From positions 67,580,001-67,644,000 of the forward strand of contig OZ287750.1 in the NCBI GenBank assembly GCA_965649765.1: DNA of 64,000 nt, written 5' to 3'. Each line of letters begins with the position of its first letter. The stretch's first letter is position 1. The position numbers were made by a program, and so were the translations under genes. This stretch comes from Bispira polyomma. Its lineage: Eukaryota. Shown piece by piece: positions 3,631 through 60,780 of the stretch. The notes beneath the pieces are model-generated. The model searched no databases. It was not told the DNA's origin and saw only the letters and a program-made list of their open reading frames with translations.

Positions 3631-4191
3631 GAATCACCCAAACAGTCATTCCTGTGGATCCTAGAGAGGGAGCCACCAGTGTACTTTTATGGCACTATCC
3701 ACGTCCCATTTACCCGGGTGTGGAAGCACATTCCTCACAATGTGAAGCAGGCATTCCTGCGGGCAGACCAAGTCTACTTTGAATTAGATCTCCTGGACAC
3801 TAAGACAGTCTCTGCCCTGGCCTCTTGTCAGTTACTACCTCAAGGTCAAGTGCTCTCTAACATTCTACCTAAGGAGATGTACCGCCGACTGAGGCGCCAC
3901 CTAGACTATGTCAGGGACATGATGCCAGGTTGGATGACTACAGAGCAGCAGAGTCGTGGACTGTACGCAGACTATCTGTTCCAAGCCATCACAAGTAACT
4001 GGGAGCGTATGCGTCCCATTTGGATCATGCTGATGGTGAGCTCTCTGACAGAGAGTGAGATTCAGGCCCGAGGTGTGCCTGTCTTAGACTTGTACCTGGC
4101 ACAAGAAGCTCAGAGACTGGGTAAACAGACAGGAGCTGTGGAGCAGGTAGAGGAACAGTGTGTCCCACTCAACGGACTCAATATTTCACAG
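3631..4191 (+). CDS. TRABD2: TIKI metalloprotease exon A (first exon in window; TraB/PrgY-like catalytic domain, N-terminal part)
   Basis: Pyrimidine tract + AG (tttgttttctgtttttag) ends at 3630; donor cag|gtaagc after 4191; 561 nt, phase 0/0. Translates [31 protein letters not shown]...VYFELDL...[24 protein letters not shown]...[12 protein letters not shown]...[20 protein letters not shown], which are hallmark TIKI motifs. Confidence 0.96.
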
Positions 4192-4351
4192 GTAAGCCTG
4201 TCCCACGCAATGGAATCAATACTTCACAGATAAGCCTGTCCCACTCAATAGACTCAATACTTCACAGGTAAGCCTGTCCCAAGCAATGGACTCAATGCAC
4301 TCAATGCACTCAACAGACTCAATACTTCACAGGTAAGTGTGTCCCACTCAA
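4161..4351 (+). repeat. 38-nt tandem array spanning the exon A donor (~4.5 copies)
   Basis: Unit tgtcccactcaacggactcaatatttcacag|gtaagcc starts at 4161, 4199, 4237 and 4275. Confidence 0.95.
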
Positions 4352-24054: not shown

Positions 24055-24185
24055 GTATTGTTTGCTCTGAACCAGACGTTAGGACAACATGAAAGTGTGA
24101 GGTGGGGACTTAACAGTACACCTTACTCAACAGAGGAACTCATAACGCACTACAACTGCGGACAGTTGGATACAGTCCTCATAAG
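24055..24185 (+). CDS. TRABD2: TIKI exon B
   Basis: Acceptor tgtatattgtgtag|; translates [43 protein letters not shown] (conserved V.FALNQTL..HE and Y.TE.LI.HYNCG); donor aag|gtaata; 131 nt, phase 0/2. Not present in the ORF track. Confidence 0.94.
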
Positions 24186-24990
24186 GTAATAGGCTAGATG
24201 GTAAGAATACAGTCCTCATAAGATAATAGGCTGGATTGTAAGAATACAGTCCTTATAAAATAACAGCTAAATACAGTCCTTTTAAGGTAATAGGCTGGAT
24301 GGTAAGAATACAGTCCTCATGAGGTAATAGGCTGGATGGTAAGAATACAGTCCTCATGAGGTAATAGGCTGGATTGTAAGAATACAGTTCTTATAAAATA
24401 ACAGCTAAATACAGCCAGATACAGTCCTTATAAGGTAATAGGCTAGAGTGTGAGAATACAGTCAGATAAAGTCCTTATAAGGTTACAGGCTAAAGTGTGA
24501 GAATACAGTCAGTTACAGTCCTTATAAGGTAACAGGCTAGAGTGTGAGAATAGAATCAGATACAGTCCTGAGGCCGATGTGGCCTAGTGGTTAGCAAGCA
24601 TTGCGCTTCACAATCACTGGTCTCTTACCTCTGGGCGGCGTGAGTTCGAATCGCGTCGATGCCTATGTGGGAAAGGTGGTACTTCCTTACTGTGGGCCGC
24701 TGGTTTCTCTGCATAACCTTGACCGACTGTATGCAGTGTTTCCTCCAGCGTTTCCAACTACCCGTCCCAATATAACCTACTAAAAGGTACTAGAGTGGAC
24801 GTTAAATATCCAAATTCAAATTCAGATACAGTCCTTATAAGGTAACAGGCTAGAGTGTGAGAATACAGTCAGATACATTTCTTATAAGGTAACAGGCTAG
24901 ATTGTGGGAATACAACCAGATAGAAACTTTAAAAGGTAATAGGCTGGATTGTGAATACCACCAGATACAGTCCTTATAAGGTAGATTATG
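24170..24990 (+). repeat. 37/47-nt tandem array spanning the exon B donor, interrupted by a SINE
   Basis: Unit atacagtcctcataag|gtaataggctggatggtaaga, roughly a dozen diverged copies. Confidence 0.93.
24570..24821 (+). mobile_element. Full-length tRNA-derived SINE (Meta-domain-like) with 14-bp TSD
   Basis: A box tggcctagtgg, B box gagttcgaatc, tail (caaatt)2, TSD tcagatacagtcct at 24556-24569 and 24822-24835; second copy at 55422. Confidence 0.88.
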
Positions 24991-30383: not shown

Positions 30384-30583
30384 TCACAACACTGCTCAAG
30401 TGCCCAATCTAGTCGTTAACGTGAACCACACGTCACATGAGAGCAATCTAGTCATGGCTCGGGAAATCGACCACTACTTCCGTGAGGAGCTTATCTACAA
30501 ACGCAACCAGCGCATGGCCCACCGTATCAGCCGTCTACTCAGGAATCACCCAAATCAAAGCTTCTTCTTTGCCTTTGGAGCAG
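30384..30583 (+). CDS. TRABD2: TIKI exon C
   Basis: Acceptor tttcttttcgcag|; SHNTAQVPNLVVNVNHTSHESNLVMAREIDHYFREELIYKRNQRMAHRISRLLRNHPNQSFFFAFGAG; donor cag|gtaaga; 200 nt, phase 2/1. Confidence 0.95.
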
Positions 30584-40202: not shown

Positions 40203-40296
40203 GTCACTTTGTTGGTAATAACACAGTACTGGACATTCTAAAGGCCAAGAATTACCATGTGGTCAACACCCCAGTCAACCAGGAGGCTTACTTAGG
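40203..40296 (+). CDS. TRABD2: TIKI exon D (completes the GAGH metal-ligand motif)
   Basis: Acceptor ttgtatttctag|; GHFVGNNTVLDILKAKNYHVVNTPVNQEAYLG; donor agg|gtaggt; 94 nt, phase 1/2. Joins exon C to give FAFGAGHF. Confidence 0.92.
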
Positions 40297-40469
40297 GTAG
40301 GTGGCTAGTTTAACCAACACCTTAGTCAACCAGAAGGCTTACTTACGGTATGTGGCTAGTTTAACCAACACCTTAGTCAACCAGGAGGCTTACTTAGGGT
40401 ATGTGGCTAGTTTAACAAACACCCCAGTCAACCAGGAGGCTTACTTAGGGTTGGTAGTTGGTTTAACCA
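40264..40469 (+). repeat. 51-nt tandem array spanning the exon D donor (4 copies)
   Basis: Unit caacaccccagtcaaccaggaggcttacttagg|gtaggtggctagtttaac starts at 40264, 40315, 40366 and 40417. Confidence 0.95.
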
Positions 40470-40557
40470 GAAATTAGCCCCATTTGTGATCAAGTGTAAG
40501 ATTGCATATTTTGTACCAAATGACCTCTTATTACCAGAGCCAATTTTTACAGTTCGT

Positions 40558-41346
40558 ATGTACTGCATGACTACATTATACCACACTACCTCCTGTATTA
40601 CAGCTAAGTGTATAAGGTGAGCAGTCATCCTGTACTGCATTACTACATTATACCACACTACCTTCTATATTACAGCTCAGTGTATAAGGTGAGCAGTCAA
40701 CCTGTACTGTATGACTACATTATACCACACTACCTTCTATATTACAGCTCAGTGTATAAGGTGAGCAGTCATCCTGTACTGCATTACTACATTATACCAC
40801 ACTACCTTCTATATTACAGCTCAGTGTATAAGGTGAGCAGTCAACCTGTACTGCATTACTACATTATACCACACTACCTTCTATATTACAGCTCAGTGTA
40901 TAAGGTGAGCACTCATCCTGTACTGCATTACTACATTATACCACACTACCTTCTATATTACAGCTCAGTGTATAAGGTGAGCAGTCAGCCTGTACTGCAT
41001 GACTACATTATGCCACACTACCTCCTGTATTACAAATCCTCCTATAAGGTGAGCAGTCAGCCTGTACTGCATGACTACATTATACCACACTACCTACTGT
41101 ATTACAGATCTTTCTATAAGGTGAACAGCCAACCTGTACTGCATGACTACATTATACCACACTACCTTCTATATTACAGCTCAGTGTATAAGGTGAGCAG
41201 TCAGCCTGTACTATTATACCACACTACCTCCTGTATTACAGATCCTCCTATAAGGTGAGCAGTCAACCTGTACTGTATGTGTACATTATACCACACTACC
41301 TCCTGTATTACAGATCCTCCTATGAGGTGAGCAGTCAACCTGTACT
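40558..41346 (+). repeat. 72-nt tandem array spanning the exon E acceptor (~11 copies)
   Basis: Unit gtactgcatgactacattataccacactacctcctgtattacag|atcctcctataaggtgagcagtcaacct. Confidence 0.95.
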
Positions 41347-41442
41347 TTTGGCAGACCTGGGTACAGACACAGCCCCTGTCATCATTACCACAGGAAACTT
41401 TGACTACCTCAACCCATTCCAGCAAAAACGACCTCGTCACAG
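41314..41442 (+). CDS. TRABD2: TIKI exon E (variable linker)
   Basis: Acceptor cctcctgtattacag| (last copy of the 72-nt array); SSYEVSSQPVLLADLGTDTAPVIITTGNFDYLNPFQQKRPRH; strong donor cag|gtaaga; 129 nt, phase 2/2, in frame with D and F. The acceptor could instead be 41242. Confidence 0.75.
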
Positions 41443-41589
41443 GTAAGACTAAGGTGTTATAGCTCAGCTAAACCACCCCTCAATTGAACCCTTTTACTTC
41501 TAATGGCGCAGTATTCCCCTGTACTGAAGGAAGTTATTGTGTAACAGTAAGAGTCATTAAATAAAAAGATTCTAGATATTTCCAAATAG

Positions 41590-42474: not shown

Positions 42475-42597
42475 ACACAGAAATAATAGGCGGCGGAATC
42501 GAAAGCGTGAACGTACTCGAAAAGAACAAACAACAAAGTACAGTGGACTGAAACGTCCTCGTTTTAATGATCTCTGGGTGAGACTGTACCCTACCAG
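42475..42597 (+). CDS. TRABD2: TIKI exon F (polybasic stretch + FNDLWVR motif)
   Basis: Acceptor ttttctattccaatag|; RHRNNRRRNRKRERTRKEQTTKYSGLKRPRFNDLWVRLYPT; FNDLWVR is recognisable from vertebrate TIKI C-terminal regions; donor cag|gttagt; 123 nt, phase 2/2. Confidence 0.9.
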
Positions 42598-43300
42598 GTT
42601 AGTGCTATAAACTAAAGACTGTACTCTACCAGGTTAGTGCTATAAACTAAAGACTTTACCCTATCAGGTTAGTGCTATAAACTAAAGACTGTACCCTACC
42701 AGGTTAGTGCTATAAAGTAAAGACTGTACTCTCCCAGGTTAGTACTACAAACTAAAGACTGTACCCCACCAGGTTAGTACTATAAACTAAAGACTGTACC
42801 CTCCCAGGTTATTGCTATAAACTAAAGACTGTACCCTACCAGGTTAGTGCTATAAACTAAAGACTGTACCCCACCAGGTTAGTGCTATAAACTAAAGACT
42901 GTACCCTATAAGGTTAGTGCTATAAACTAAAGACTGTACCCTATAAGGTTAGTTCTATAAACTAAAGACTGTACCCTCCCAGGTTATTGCTATAAACTAA
43001 AGACTGTACTCTACCAGGTTAGTGCTATAAACTAGAGACTGTACCCTATAAGGTTAGTGCTATAAACCAAAGACTGTACCCCACCAGGTTAGTACTATAA
43101 ACTAAAGACTGTACCCTCCCAGGTTATTGCTATAAACTAAAGAATGTACCCTACCAGGTTAGTACTATAAAACTAAAGACTGTACCCTACCAGGTTAGTG
43201 CTATAAACTAAAGCCTGTACCCCACCAGGTTAGTGCTATAAACTAAATACTGTACCCCACCAGGTTAGTGCTATAAACTAAAGACTGTACCCTACCAGGT
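42581..43300 (+). repeat. 35-nt tandem array spanning the exon F donor (21 copies of the exonic part)
   Basis: Unit agactgtaccctaccag|gttagtgctataaactaa; last copy starts at 43282 and continues cag|gtaagc. Confidence 0.97.
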
Positions 43301-43803
43301 AAGCTTTCAGCTATGTTATAAGACTCACTTCAAACATAATTATAGCCAGCTTTTGCCTATGCCACAGCCATGGGCAAAGATAACACCATAAACATATCAA
43401 TTATGACCATGGCAGTGATGTTGGCTGTGATGTGTCACAGTAGCACAAGATTGCAATTATTATCAAGAAAGATGCTTACACATGTTTTTATAAATAAGAA
43501 GTTTAACATGAGGAAATAACGTCTAATTAATCATTTCTAGAGCCGTACCTTTCTATCAGTACCAAAACATGACGGCCAGCGACACCTGCAACCCCTTAAA
43601 TACTCTTGCCTTTTAATATTAAAGATAATATGTGCAAAAGCTTAAGGAATGGTGTTTCTGTGTACTATTATTCCAAATAAAACTACCTCAGTATCAGTAG
43701 ATGATCTATGTATTACAACTATTGCTTACTAGAGCTGACCACACTGACCTATGTATCACTCTATCTGACCACACTGCTATATTTGTTTTTTTGTGTGTTG
43801 TAG

Positions 43804-43990
43804 CTCTTCTACTCCATTCCTGTATCAGCATGATAAACCTGTAGCCTGGACAACCACGTCACCACGGTTACCAGAGGCTGGAGATGACAATGGCGAGTAC
43901 CTGCTCTACAGCTCCATCTCCACCCCTACATCTTGTTATAGGCCAGTTGTGATAGCTTGGGCTGTAGTGTTATGTGTGGTCAACCTATAG
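43804..43990 (+). CDS. TRABD2: TIKI terminal exon G (hydrophobic C-terminus, GPI-signal/membrane-anchor-like)
   Basis: Acceptor tttttttgtgtgttgtag|; phase 2; SSSTPFLYQHDKPVAWTTTSPRLPEAGDDNGEYLLYSSISTPTSCYRPVVIAWAVVLCVVNL*; ends in a hydrophobic run with no cytosolic tail. Confidence 0.85.
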
Positions 43991-58570: not shown

Positions 58571-60131
58571 GAACATGTTATCAGTGTCATATTTTATAGA
58601 GGGTTCGAGATGTGCAGGGACATTAGCTACCAGAACATGGGCACTCCTAATCCTGTGATGCCTCATGACTCTCACGACACTTAGCCCACTCAGCACACAT
58701 ACACAACCACTACAACCACTTAGTCACCAGCCACCACGAACACCTCGACCTCAGACATATAGACGACAGCCTCTACTCTCCTCTATCAGTCCCAGTGTGG
58801 ACCACCATAAAAGACCCTTTTCAGGGCCACCCGAATCATCCAAAAACAATGTCTAAGTAGGAGGAGACAAGAAGCAAACTCTCCCCCATATAAATTATCG
58901 CACATACACACAAATGGAAAAATAGTACCCCCACCCTCCCTCGCCCCCACACAATTAAAAAAAAAAATTTGAAATGTCGAAATCTTCCAAACAGTTATTA
59001 CATGCACTTGAACCCCCTTCAAAGTTGAACCCCAGAGGAGCGGAGAAAATAACCTCTAATTAATCAAGCTTACTACTCAAGCACATTAAAAATTTAAAAA
59101 CTGTAGTGGGTCTAAAAAGACTGGTCTTCACATAAAGGGGAGTTGACTTAACAGAGTTTAACTTGAGGGGTTTTCACAAGAAAGAGGGGTTGATTTAATA
59201 ATAGGGGAGAGACAATTACTGGAAAATTTTTGGTGAACTTGGTTGAGGTCCACGTGTGGAGTGTTCCCGTGCTTGCAAAGCATCTTGGAGATTTGAAGCA
59301 CACAGCAGCCATACTGTTTGGACAACTTGTTTTCTTCTGTGTCCTGGGAGCACTGATGTTGATATTTAGATCTTTAATTTATGGGAATATGAAGGAACAC
59401 TCCCTCCTTGTTGTACTGAAGCTCTTGTAGACTCTGGTGTTTCCATTTTTAAGTGTTTACTATAAGATGCCGGTCTCTGACTTTGACCGGGCTCCACTGC
59501 TTCTGGGGTTTAGGTACTAAAACAGGCGTCTGTTGTACCCAAAGTATCTCCTTGCTGCTAAAAGGTTTTATGGTTGTAACTTTGAGGTGAGTAGTGCCTC
59601 CCGCCCTGGTTACCCTGGCATGGGTAGGGTGTGATACCTGTACAATCCCTACAGAGGAGTAGGGTGACTGAGTATGGTGACTGACATGGGTGAGCCACTC
59701 TGCTGGGACCTGTATAGCGTTTAAATAAAAAAGGTCTGTACTAAAGAATTACCTGGTACAAAGTGATGTAGGTTGGTGAGTATGCATCCGGTCTAAGCAG
59801 AATGCAGTTAGCAATCATGGTCAACATGTCAATTGTTAAATATGGGCAAGTAGCTTGGCAAAGGGTTACAAAGATACGATGTGCGACAGCAATGCTGTCA
59901 TCTTAATGGTGCTGTTCCACTATCACAAACGGTCGGGGAGAAGCCCTGATTATGCAATAATAAGCAATCCTTGGCATTTTGAAAAAAGAGCAGGAATAAA
60001 TGCGTCACCATGACTTGTAAGATAAGTAGTACTACAGCCCCAATAAGTTGTTTACATTATGATCGATTGGCCTGATTCATCTTTATGATCACATTTTTAA
60101 GGAGGCAAAAAGAAGCACTAAATATACAGCC

Positions 60132-60780
60132 TTGGCATTAGCTCAGGTGGCCAGAAGACGAAGAGGAAGGCCAAAGTTCTGGATAAAGCCATGGCTCAGG
60201 GAAATAGCAGAAATTGGACACTACACCGCACTCATGCCATGCCTGGAGCTGCAAGATCTACAGTCGTATCGCAACTTCCCCAGGATGCCCCCTGACATAT
60301 TCCAGCAGATGGATAGGAGGGTGGGGCACAAGATACAGAGACACACCACCTGGTACAGGAAGGCACTGGCCCCTGGACTCAAGATAGCCTTCACTTTGAG
60401 GCGTTTAGCTACTGGGAAGTCCTAGAAATCACTGCGGTACTCATTTGTAGTAGGCAAGTCAACCATAACCAAGTTTGTGCTACAAGTTTGCCAGGCCATC
60501 ATCGACGAGTACCATGAAGAATTCCTTAAATGCCCCACCAACCTCGACTACTGGAATAAGGTTGAGTCTGTGTTCCAGAATGCGTGGAACGTTCCTAATG
60601 CCCTGTGGGCCATAGACGGCAAACACATTGCTATGAAATGCCCGAGGAAAGGTGGGAGCGAGTACTTCAACTACAAGGGGTACCACTCAATTGTCATGCT
60701 TGTCCATGCTTGTAGAAGGGCATTACCGTTTCCCGTGGGTTGACATAAGTTCAAACGACTCATGCTCGGATCCGCAAACA
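60132..60780 (+). pseudogene. Harbinger transposase N-terminal half (stop at 60423-60425, frameshift, 3' deletion)
   Basis: FWIKPWL...YRNFPRM...KIAFTLRRLATGKS*...VCQAI...WNVPNALWAIDGKHIAMKCP...YFNYKGYHSIV...WVDISSNDSCSD. Confidence 0.92.

Follow-up and report, generated by a model that had tools for sequence, protein, structure and literature searches.

Tandem copies of the exon E acceptor in a TIKI gene of a likely annelid, probably an in-place duplication of the 'mirage' type

The stretch of DNA analysed here, 64 kb long and referred to as the window, carries a gene for a TIKI protease, of a family that cuts Wnt, with a TraB/PrgY/gumN domain (PF01963). TIKI proteins are membrane-anchored. 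The domain and the motifs GAGHF and FNDLW, present in this gene, are also those of the TIKI (TRABD2) metalloproteases of Pfam PF01963. Exon A is 66-71% identical to the best 120 of 763 homologues, and most of those are named TIKI1. Placed with tblastn and splice signals, exons A to G give an open frame of 473 codons from exon A on, with a hydrophobic tail. The assignment to TIKI and that of the exons, proposed already in the initial annotation, are supported by the PF01963 domain, by tblastn and by the frame. In the TIKI tree, the row of the window, shortened to 330 residues, forms a long branch, and the lineage was judged from DYRK2 instead. The coding exons are as follows.

3632..4191, + strand: exon A, first part of the TraB/PrgY/gumN domain (tblastn, splice signals)
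24055..24185, + strand: exon B (tblastn, splice signals)
30384..30583, + strand: exon C, with an array at neither edge (tblastn, splice signals)
40203..40296, + strand: exon D, ends in phase 2 (tblastn, splice signals)
41314..41442, + strand: authentic exon E, 43 codons (129 nt) in phase 2-2, with the strong donor GTAAGA and, within the exon, a cryptic donor at 41327
42475..42597, + strand: exon F, basic stretch and FNDLW motif
43804..43990, + strand: last coding exon G, hydrophobic C-terminus, stop at 43988-43990 (placed by frame, not by homology)

Exon E alone has weak similarity to homologues, with E=0.25 for the best phmmer match, a chiton protein. In an alignment of 16 homologues, it pairs with the corresponding part of the proteins of molluscs and Lingula. 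Between the TIKI isoforms X1 and X2 of Haliotis rubra, the difference at the exon E position is a single block of exactly 43 residues, and this is the size of exon E when read from 41314. From this 43-residue cassette, 41314 is likely the ancestral acceptor, and the counterpart of exon E is a cassette in the abalone annotation.

The acceptor of exon E stands at the end of a tandem array, with the following features.

40559..41346, + strand: acceptor mirage at exon E, 72-nt unit in 11 copies, bounded by TGTACT (TRF, unit alignment)
40605..40607, + strand: in-frame TAA of unit 1, met from acceptor 40604
41207..41268, + strand: 62-nt unit (10-nt deletion), in which the GTGAGC donor at 41255 contains the TGA 41256-41258

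TRF reported the array at 40559-41346 with a period of 72, 11.1 copies and 89% matches. The acceptors end at 40603, 40675, 40747, 40819, 40891, 40963, 41035, 41107, 41179, 41241 and 41313, with a spacing of 72 nt and a single exception of 62 nt. AG is intact in nine of the ten extra copies, and the copy at 41035 has AA. A GT lies 13 nt 3' of the acceptor position in 11 of 11 units, as GTGAGC ten times and as GTGAAC once. The position of the array, the acceptor ends, the AA at 41035 and the single short spacing had been described in the initial annotation, together with the GT 13 nt after the acceptor, and all were reproduced by TRF and unit alignment. The same annotation had read the 13 nt as a micro-exon followed by a donor. 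This needs correction, as the repeat unit consists of the end of intron D-E and the start of exon E, and the supposed micro-exon with its donor is the first 13 nt plus the next codons of exon E. The GTGAGC donor of the units is thus exon E coding sequence that was copied along, and it is found also inside the authentic exon. An inner donor of this kind within the first 33 nt was recorded in 2 of 112 sampled exons.

The array is bounded on both sides by TGTACT, a 6-nt microhomology, and its column identity is 92%. Units 2-6 and 9 have common variants that are absent from the authentic unit. All nine matches to an 18-nt motif of the unit in the 1.04-Gb genome are at the TIKI locus. The array is a locus-specific tandem duplication and not a product of chance, and by its sequence it appears young. 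A dispersed or mobile origin of the unit was ruled out, since the motif is confined to this locus. Just 5' of the array, an acceptor-like AG is located at 40551-40552, and in-frame reading from it arrives at TAA 40605. RNA structure hiding the exon E acceptors gave no signal (z=+0.84).

Three DNA runs (X1, X2, and X3) were compared with the array. They come from one study, possibly from the assembly's own sample, and their short contigs collapse the array. Contigs across both ends of exon E are unspliced, with no splice joints, which identifies the runs as DNA. Contigs of all three runs are about 10-12 times deeper over one unit than over exon E; this value is not a copy number, and it makes an assembly artefact an unlikely source of the array. 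A contig of X3 matches across the junction of the 10-nt deletion without difference, with only 26 letters on one side where the rule was 31, and the junction is covered by no contig of X1 or X2.

Of the 13 splice sites in the TIKI gene, 5 are overlapped by arrays: the donors of exons A, B, D, and F and the exon E acceptor. The donor arrays are listed below.

4161..4345, + strand: donor mirage of exon A, 38-nt unit; later donors at 4229 (GT lost), 4267 and 4332
24170..24983, + strand: donor mirage of exon B, with units of 37 and 47 nt and a break at about 24570-24820
40264..40469, + strand: donor mirage of exon D, 51-nt unit in 4 copies; later donors meet TAG 40298
42581..43300, + strand: donor mirage of exon F, 35-nt unit in 20.5 copies; later donors meet a stop at 42608

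In all four donor arrays, the full-length protein is obtained from the exon-nearest copy only, and the later copies lead to a premature stop. The donor copies at 4332 and 43298 outscore the authentic donors of the gene. In the exon F array, the last donor copy is GTAAGC and is followed by unrelated intron, and all earlier copies read GTTAGT or GTTATT; in the array (42598-43310), either filler DNA supplied the first donor or the last unit has been truncated. The insert at 24570-24820, which splits the exon B array, is non-repeat sequence with a start that looks tRNA-like by eye, and it is a possible SINE. If the extra units of both arrays are subtracted from intron D-E (40297-41313), 154 nt are left, which is less than any of 117 introns inferred in the genome. 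Mirages may lengthen short introns; the other mirage introns of the TIKI gene are long.

How common such arrays are was estimated from 134 exon loci of myosin, kinesin, aldehyde dehydrogenase, HECT, and SNF2 genes. After 11 long or multi-stop matches and 11 near-copies were dropped, 112 exons with 224 edges were left. Arrays running outward were found at 29 of 224 edges versus 83 of 2464 shifted flank positions (Fisher p=1e-8), with approximate exon edges, with other exons included in the flank controls and with a gene shared by some sampled exons. In 20 fixed 10-kb stretches, the value to be set against 29/224 edge-anchored arrays was 47/3840 positions. By eye, 22 of the 29 edge arrays carry a splice site in the unit (15 donors and 7 acceptors), six stop short within the intron, and one spans a stop codon. 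The TIKI gene is richer in arrays than the sample, with arrays at 5/13 splice sites versus 22/224 exon edges (p=0.006).

The array at the stop codon belongs to a HECT gene, locus L087 (G000:C6:803691-806882), and has a unit of 75 nt, a hint that arrays may be seeded by coding edges of any kind. Kinase loci were excluded from the splice-edge count. They served to tell an effect of the exon edge from one of the splice site: in single-exon kinase frames, arrays are at 1 of 26 ends, too small a sample for a decision, with 13 distinct frames from 30 loci. Many of these frames (L142-L166) are near-identical, about 411-418 codons long and scattered over contigs, and a mobile element may carry them. 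Three myosin genes that are almost identical and lie on separate contigs (L007, L008, and L009) have a common 53-nt donor mirage, with 12, 24, and 17 copies, respectively, inside the loci, which indicates that the copy number changed after duplication. Tandem repeats make up 13.9% of the window and 3.9% of the 20 fixed stretches, the latter with periods of at least 10, and gene bodies seem to be richer in minisatellites. Broken reading frames at 60063-60740 of the window resemble what we take to be a DDE nuclease of the Harbinger type.

The sizes of introns were inferred from adjacent matches in four tables, with some long or repeated rows omitted. Of the 117 introns obtained, the shortest has 267 nt, the median is 908 nt, and none is under 250 nt, with the limit that short in-frame introns may hide in merged matches. 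A ladder of micro-exons, or a gain of introns, would need mini-introns of a size that is spliced in this genome, and those between the exon E units are 59 and 49 nt long. A ladder of 13-nt exons and 59-nt introns is thus unlikely, and exon definition is to be expected. Splice sites were scored with a rough matrix trained on the sampled exons themselves. Acceptors 41314 and 41242 tie at 5.4 bits (21st percentile), and the remaining copies have 3.9-4.0 bits (13th percentile). The real donor of exon E at 41443 is strong (94th percentile). The inner donors are at the 72nd-79th percentile, and the GTGAAC copy is at the 30th. With a weak authentic acceptor and strong inner donors, competition of splice sites at exon E is plausible.

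Reading frames between exons D and F were followed for 71 acceptor/donor pairs, and nine of them reach the normal stop. Two of the nine use acceptors 41314 and 41242 with the real donor, and the other seven are exons that end at 41254, measure 75+72k nt, contain no stop and keep the frame into exon F. The gain of 24 codons in frame by acceptor 41242, predicted by the initial annotation, was found (497 versus 473 aa from exon A on). Its unit of 24 codons stood as well, though not the statement that the unit is stop-free, which fails in unit 1, where acceptor 40604 meets TAA 40605-40607. For the same reason, reading through from the earlier acceptors to TGA 41256-41258 is right for seven of the eight with AG and wrong for 40604. 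The 10-nt deletion had been presented as a gate of the frame. This part was not upheld, because TGA 41256 lies inside donor 41255, and splicing at that donor would remove the stop. With seven of the nine frame-keeping pairs passing through the deletion unit, the deletion opens frames as well as closing them. By its reading frames, the locus does not match a poison exon, in which the alternative choice leads consistently to a premature stop, given the nine pairs that reach the normal one. None of the 27 pseudo-exons that leave authentic exon E in place, with 250 nt of intron or more ahead of it, is in frame.

A regulated switch under selection would use the choice of acceptor and the deletion to produce full-length TIKI, transcripts for decay or an anchorless protein with a Tyr/His tail, with ladders of 13-nt micro-exons in addition. 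The 24-codon unit, the read-through from seven of eight earlier AG acceptors to TGA 41256, the uncommon inner donor (2/112) and decoy dinucleotides that vary less than their neighbours agree with it. Against it, units of 3n length occur in 9 of 27 arrays, the chance rate, so that the 24-codon unit of exon E is what chance gives, and the stop can be removed at donor 41255. The read-through exons would have 262-838 nt, compared with a 95th percentile of 276 nt in the sampled exons; the introns of 59 nt compare with 267 nt for the shortest one inferred; and single 13-nt inclusions hit a stop within a few codons. The same architecture is moreover common in the genome (22/224 edges). The reading of the array as a frame-gated switch is not supported, and a selected switch is hardly to be expected at all.

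The seven stop-free exons could also be taken for an in-frame repeat cassette. Acceptor 41180 or 41108 would be joined with donor 41255 to a 75- or 147-nt exon that replaces exon E, the product would be an anchored TIKI with a repeat stalk, and the deletion would act as the opener. Both are normal exon sizes, donor 41255 is strong, and the frame into exon F is kept. Such a cassette nevertheless would have to use the weaker acceptors and leave out authentic exon E, it depends on a deletion in one unit of a young, 92%-identical array, and no such stalk is present among the 16 aligned homologues. It is regarded as very improbable.

In 27 arrays from the sampled loci and the window, GT or AG is broken in 8 of 212 copies. 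Eight distinct variants of the decoy dinucleotides were counted versus 20 expected from base-matched neighbours (Poisson p=0.002) and about 17 expected from the nearest three positions per side. This count includes distinct variants among copies only, in ungapped windows of 19 arrays with at least three copies, and the arrays were picked by eye for carrying a splice site. The low variation goes against a purely neutral reading as a lead, not as a finding, and the same pattern could arise if copies were re-seeded again and again from the authentic copy, which is constrained. A more far-reaching proposal is that mirages are made preferentially at splice junctions and their decoys are kept by selection, for example as additional landing sites for U1 or U2AF across long introns, and that the exon E array is a copy-number rheostat on a conserved cassette, with in-frame repeat-stalk isoforms made through the 62-nt unit. 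This proposal is improbable. If it is true that decoy sites are under selection, the reading of such repeats would change.

The array is most readily understood as an in-place duplication, a mirage, which likely arose by microhomology slippage and is likely tolerated, with the last acceptor used or the exon skipped; this is held to be probable. Slippage at TGTACT may have started the tandem duplication, and the presence of this hexamer at both ends is the mark expected of microhomology-primed duplication. Unequal exchange may then have raised the number of units and kept them alike, and repeat turnover likely produced both the 10-nt deletion and the 24-codon length by accident. Long introns would impose exon definition, and the weak acceptor at 41313 would pair with the strong donor at 41443 across the 129-nt exon. 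The upstream copies would have only a donor 13 nt away or would give pseudo-exons that mostly shift the frame. By the rule of nonsense-mediated decay known from vertebrates, rare use of upstream copies would be cleared. According to PMC9225289, exon definition prefers sites closest across the exon; for acceptors, upstream sites are favoured in general and exon definition no more than lessens this bias, which counts against use of the last acceptor. Exon E included with its 129 nt or skipped would most likely be the main products.

A tolerated array could still leak. Decoys and inner donors would then divert part of the splicing, and copy-number alleles would differ in the ratio of TIKI isoforms or in dose, without regulation. 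The authentic acceptor, weak and tied with its neighbour, and the strong inner donors are consistent with such a modifier, as are the symmetry of exon E and the skipping of its counterpart in an abalone isoform. Pseudo-sites are used in human 6-16 and CBS in the excerpts of PMC1557585, and in those of PMC10078293, human tandem-repeat length is associated with splicing. On the other side, the RT-PCR data from amphioxus suggest no interference, as far as the passages of PMC3087553 go, and with arrays at about 10% of exon edges, the genome must usually ignore them. Leaky, copy-number-dependent splicing is considered rather unlikely, and the tolerated mirage is preferred.

Several properties place the exon E array among mirages. 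Its unit spans a boundary of a real gene, most AG are kept, it is locus-specific, and its inner units are homogenised. It therefore appears to be an ordinary mirage, a repeat type already known from amphioxus and human, and this locus singly is one more mirage of little weight. What carries more weight is the number for a likely annelid, with mirages at about 10% of exon edges, edge arrays at 4-10 times the control rate and no short introns in the genome. The excess of edge arrays suggests that mutation or selection ties the birth of minisatellites to exon edges, and arrays at boundaries are a warning of false exons to gene annotators. In the literature search, with most subscription papers outside it, 'mirage' was used by name for amphioxus only, and no genome-wide annelid count was found.

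Amphioxus mirages are described from Adh3, the globins BflGb6 and BflGb9, troponin C, and PGBD5, and splicing of these genes is reported to stay regular in the passages of PMC3087553 and PMC3902484. In these passages, as at exon E, an intron-exon boundary is repeated in tandem, AG/GT is retained by most copies though not by every one, and inner units are more alike than the end unit. BflGb6 is of the acceptor type like exon E, with an intron 3' end and an exon 5' part, and the exon E unit falls within the 10-160 bp reported. Unlike the amphioxus mirages so described, the exon E units also carry a strong donor 13 nt after the acceptor. The frequency of arrays was counted here against controls, and such counts are not part of the amphioxus passages. 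The host also differs and is not a cephalochordate. For its DYRK2, the best named match is the annelid Ridgeia with 73% identity, and Branchiostoma has 58%; Lineus and a chiton, both with 68%, are below Ridgeia, and further records reach up to 95%. The host is likely an annelid. Within the TIKI family, the repeat sits outside the catalytic domain, at the 43-codon stalk exon.

In the model of Rogers, as given in the excerpt of PMC3087553, introns are gained by duplication of an AG/GT proto-splice site. The exon E unit holds AG|GT, and new exon-intron pairs are possible in principle. They would have introns of 59 nt, far below the inferred sizes, and no gain is shown.

Human VNTRs that span a boundary are listed in the passages of PMC1557585 for F7 intron 7 (37 bp), 6-16, CBS, LMNB2, and PDGF. 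There, the authentic donor alone is used in F7, LMNB2, and PDGF, and neighbouring pseudo-donors are used also in 6-16 and CBS. In the F7 type, the end unit spans the splice junction and identical pseudo-sites are left in the intron, which makes it the counterpart of the TIKI donor arrays. According to the same source, the choice among identical splice-site copies has been studied for donor arrays, in human F7. The human VNTRs are donor arrays with measured splicing, whereas exon E has an acceptor array known from its sequence, and it offers a natural substrate for the choice of acceptor among near-identical copies, less studied than the choice in donor arrays such as that of F7.
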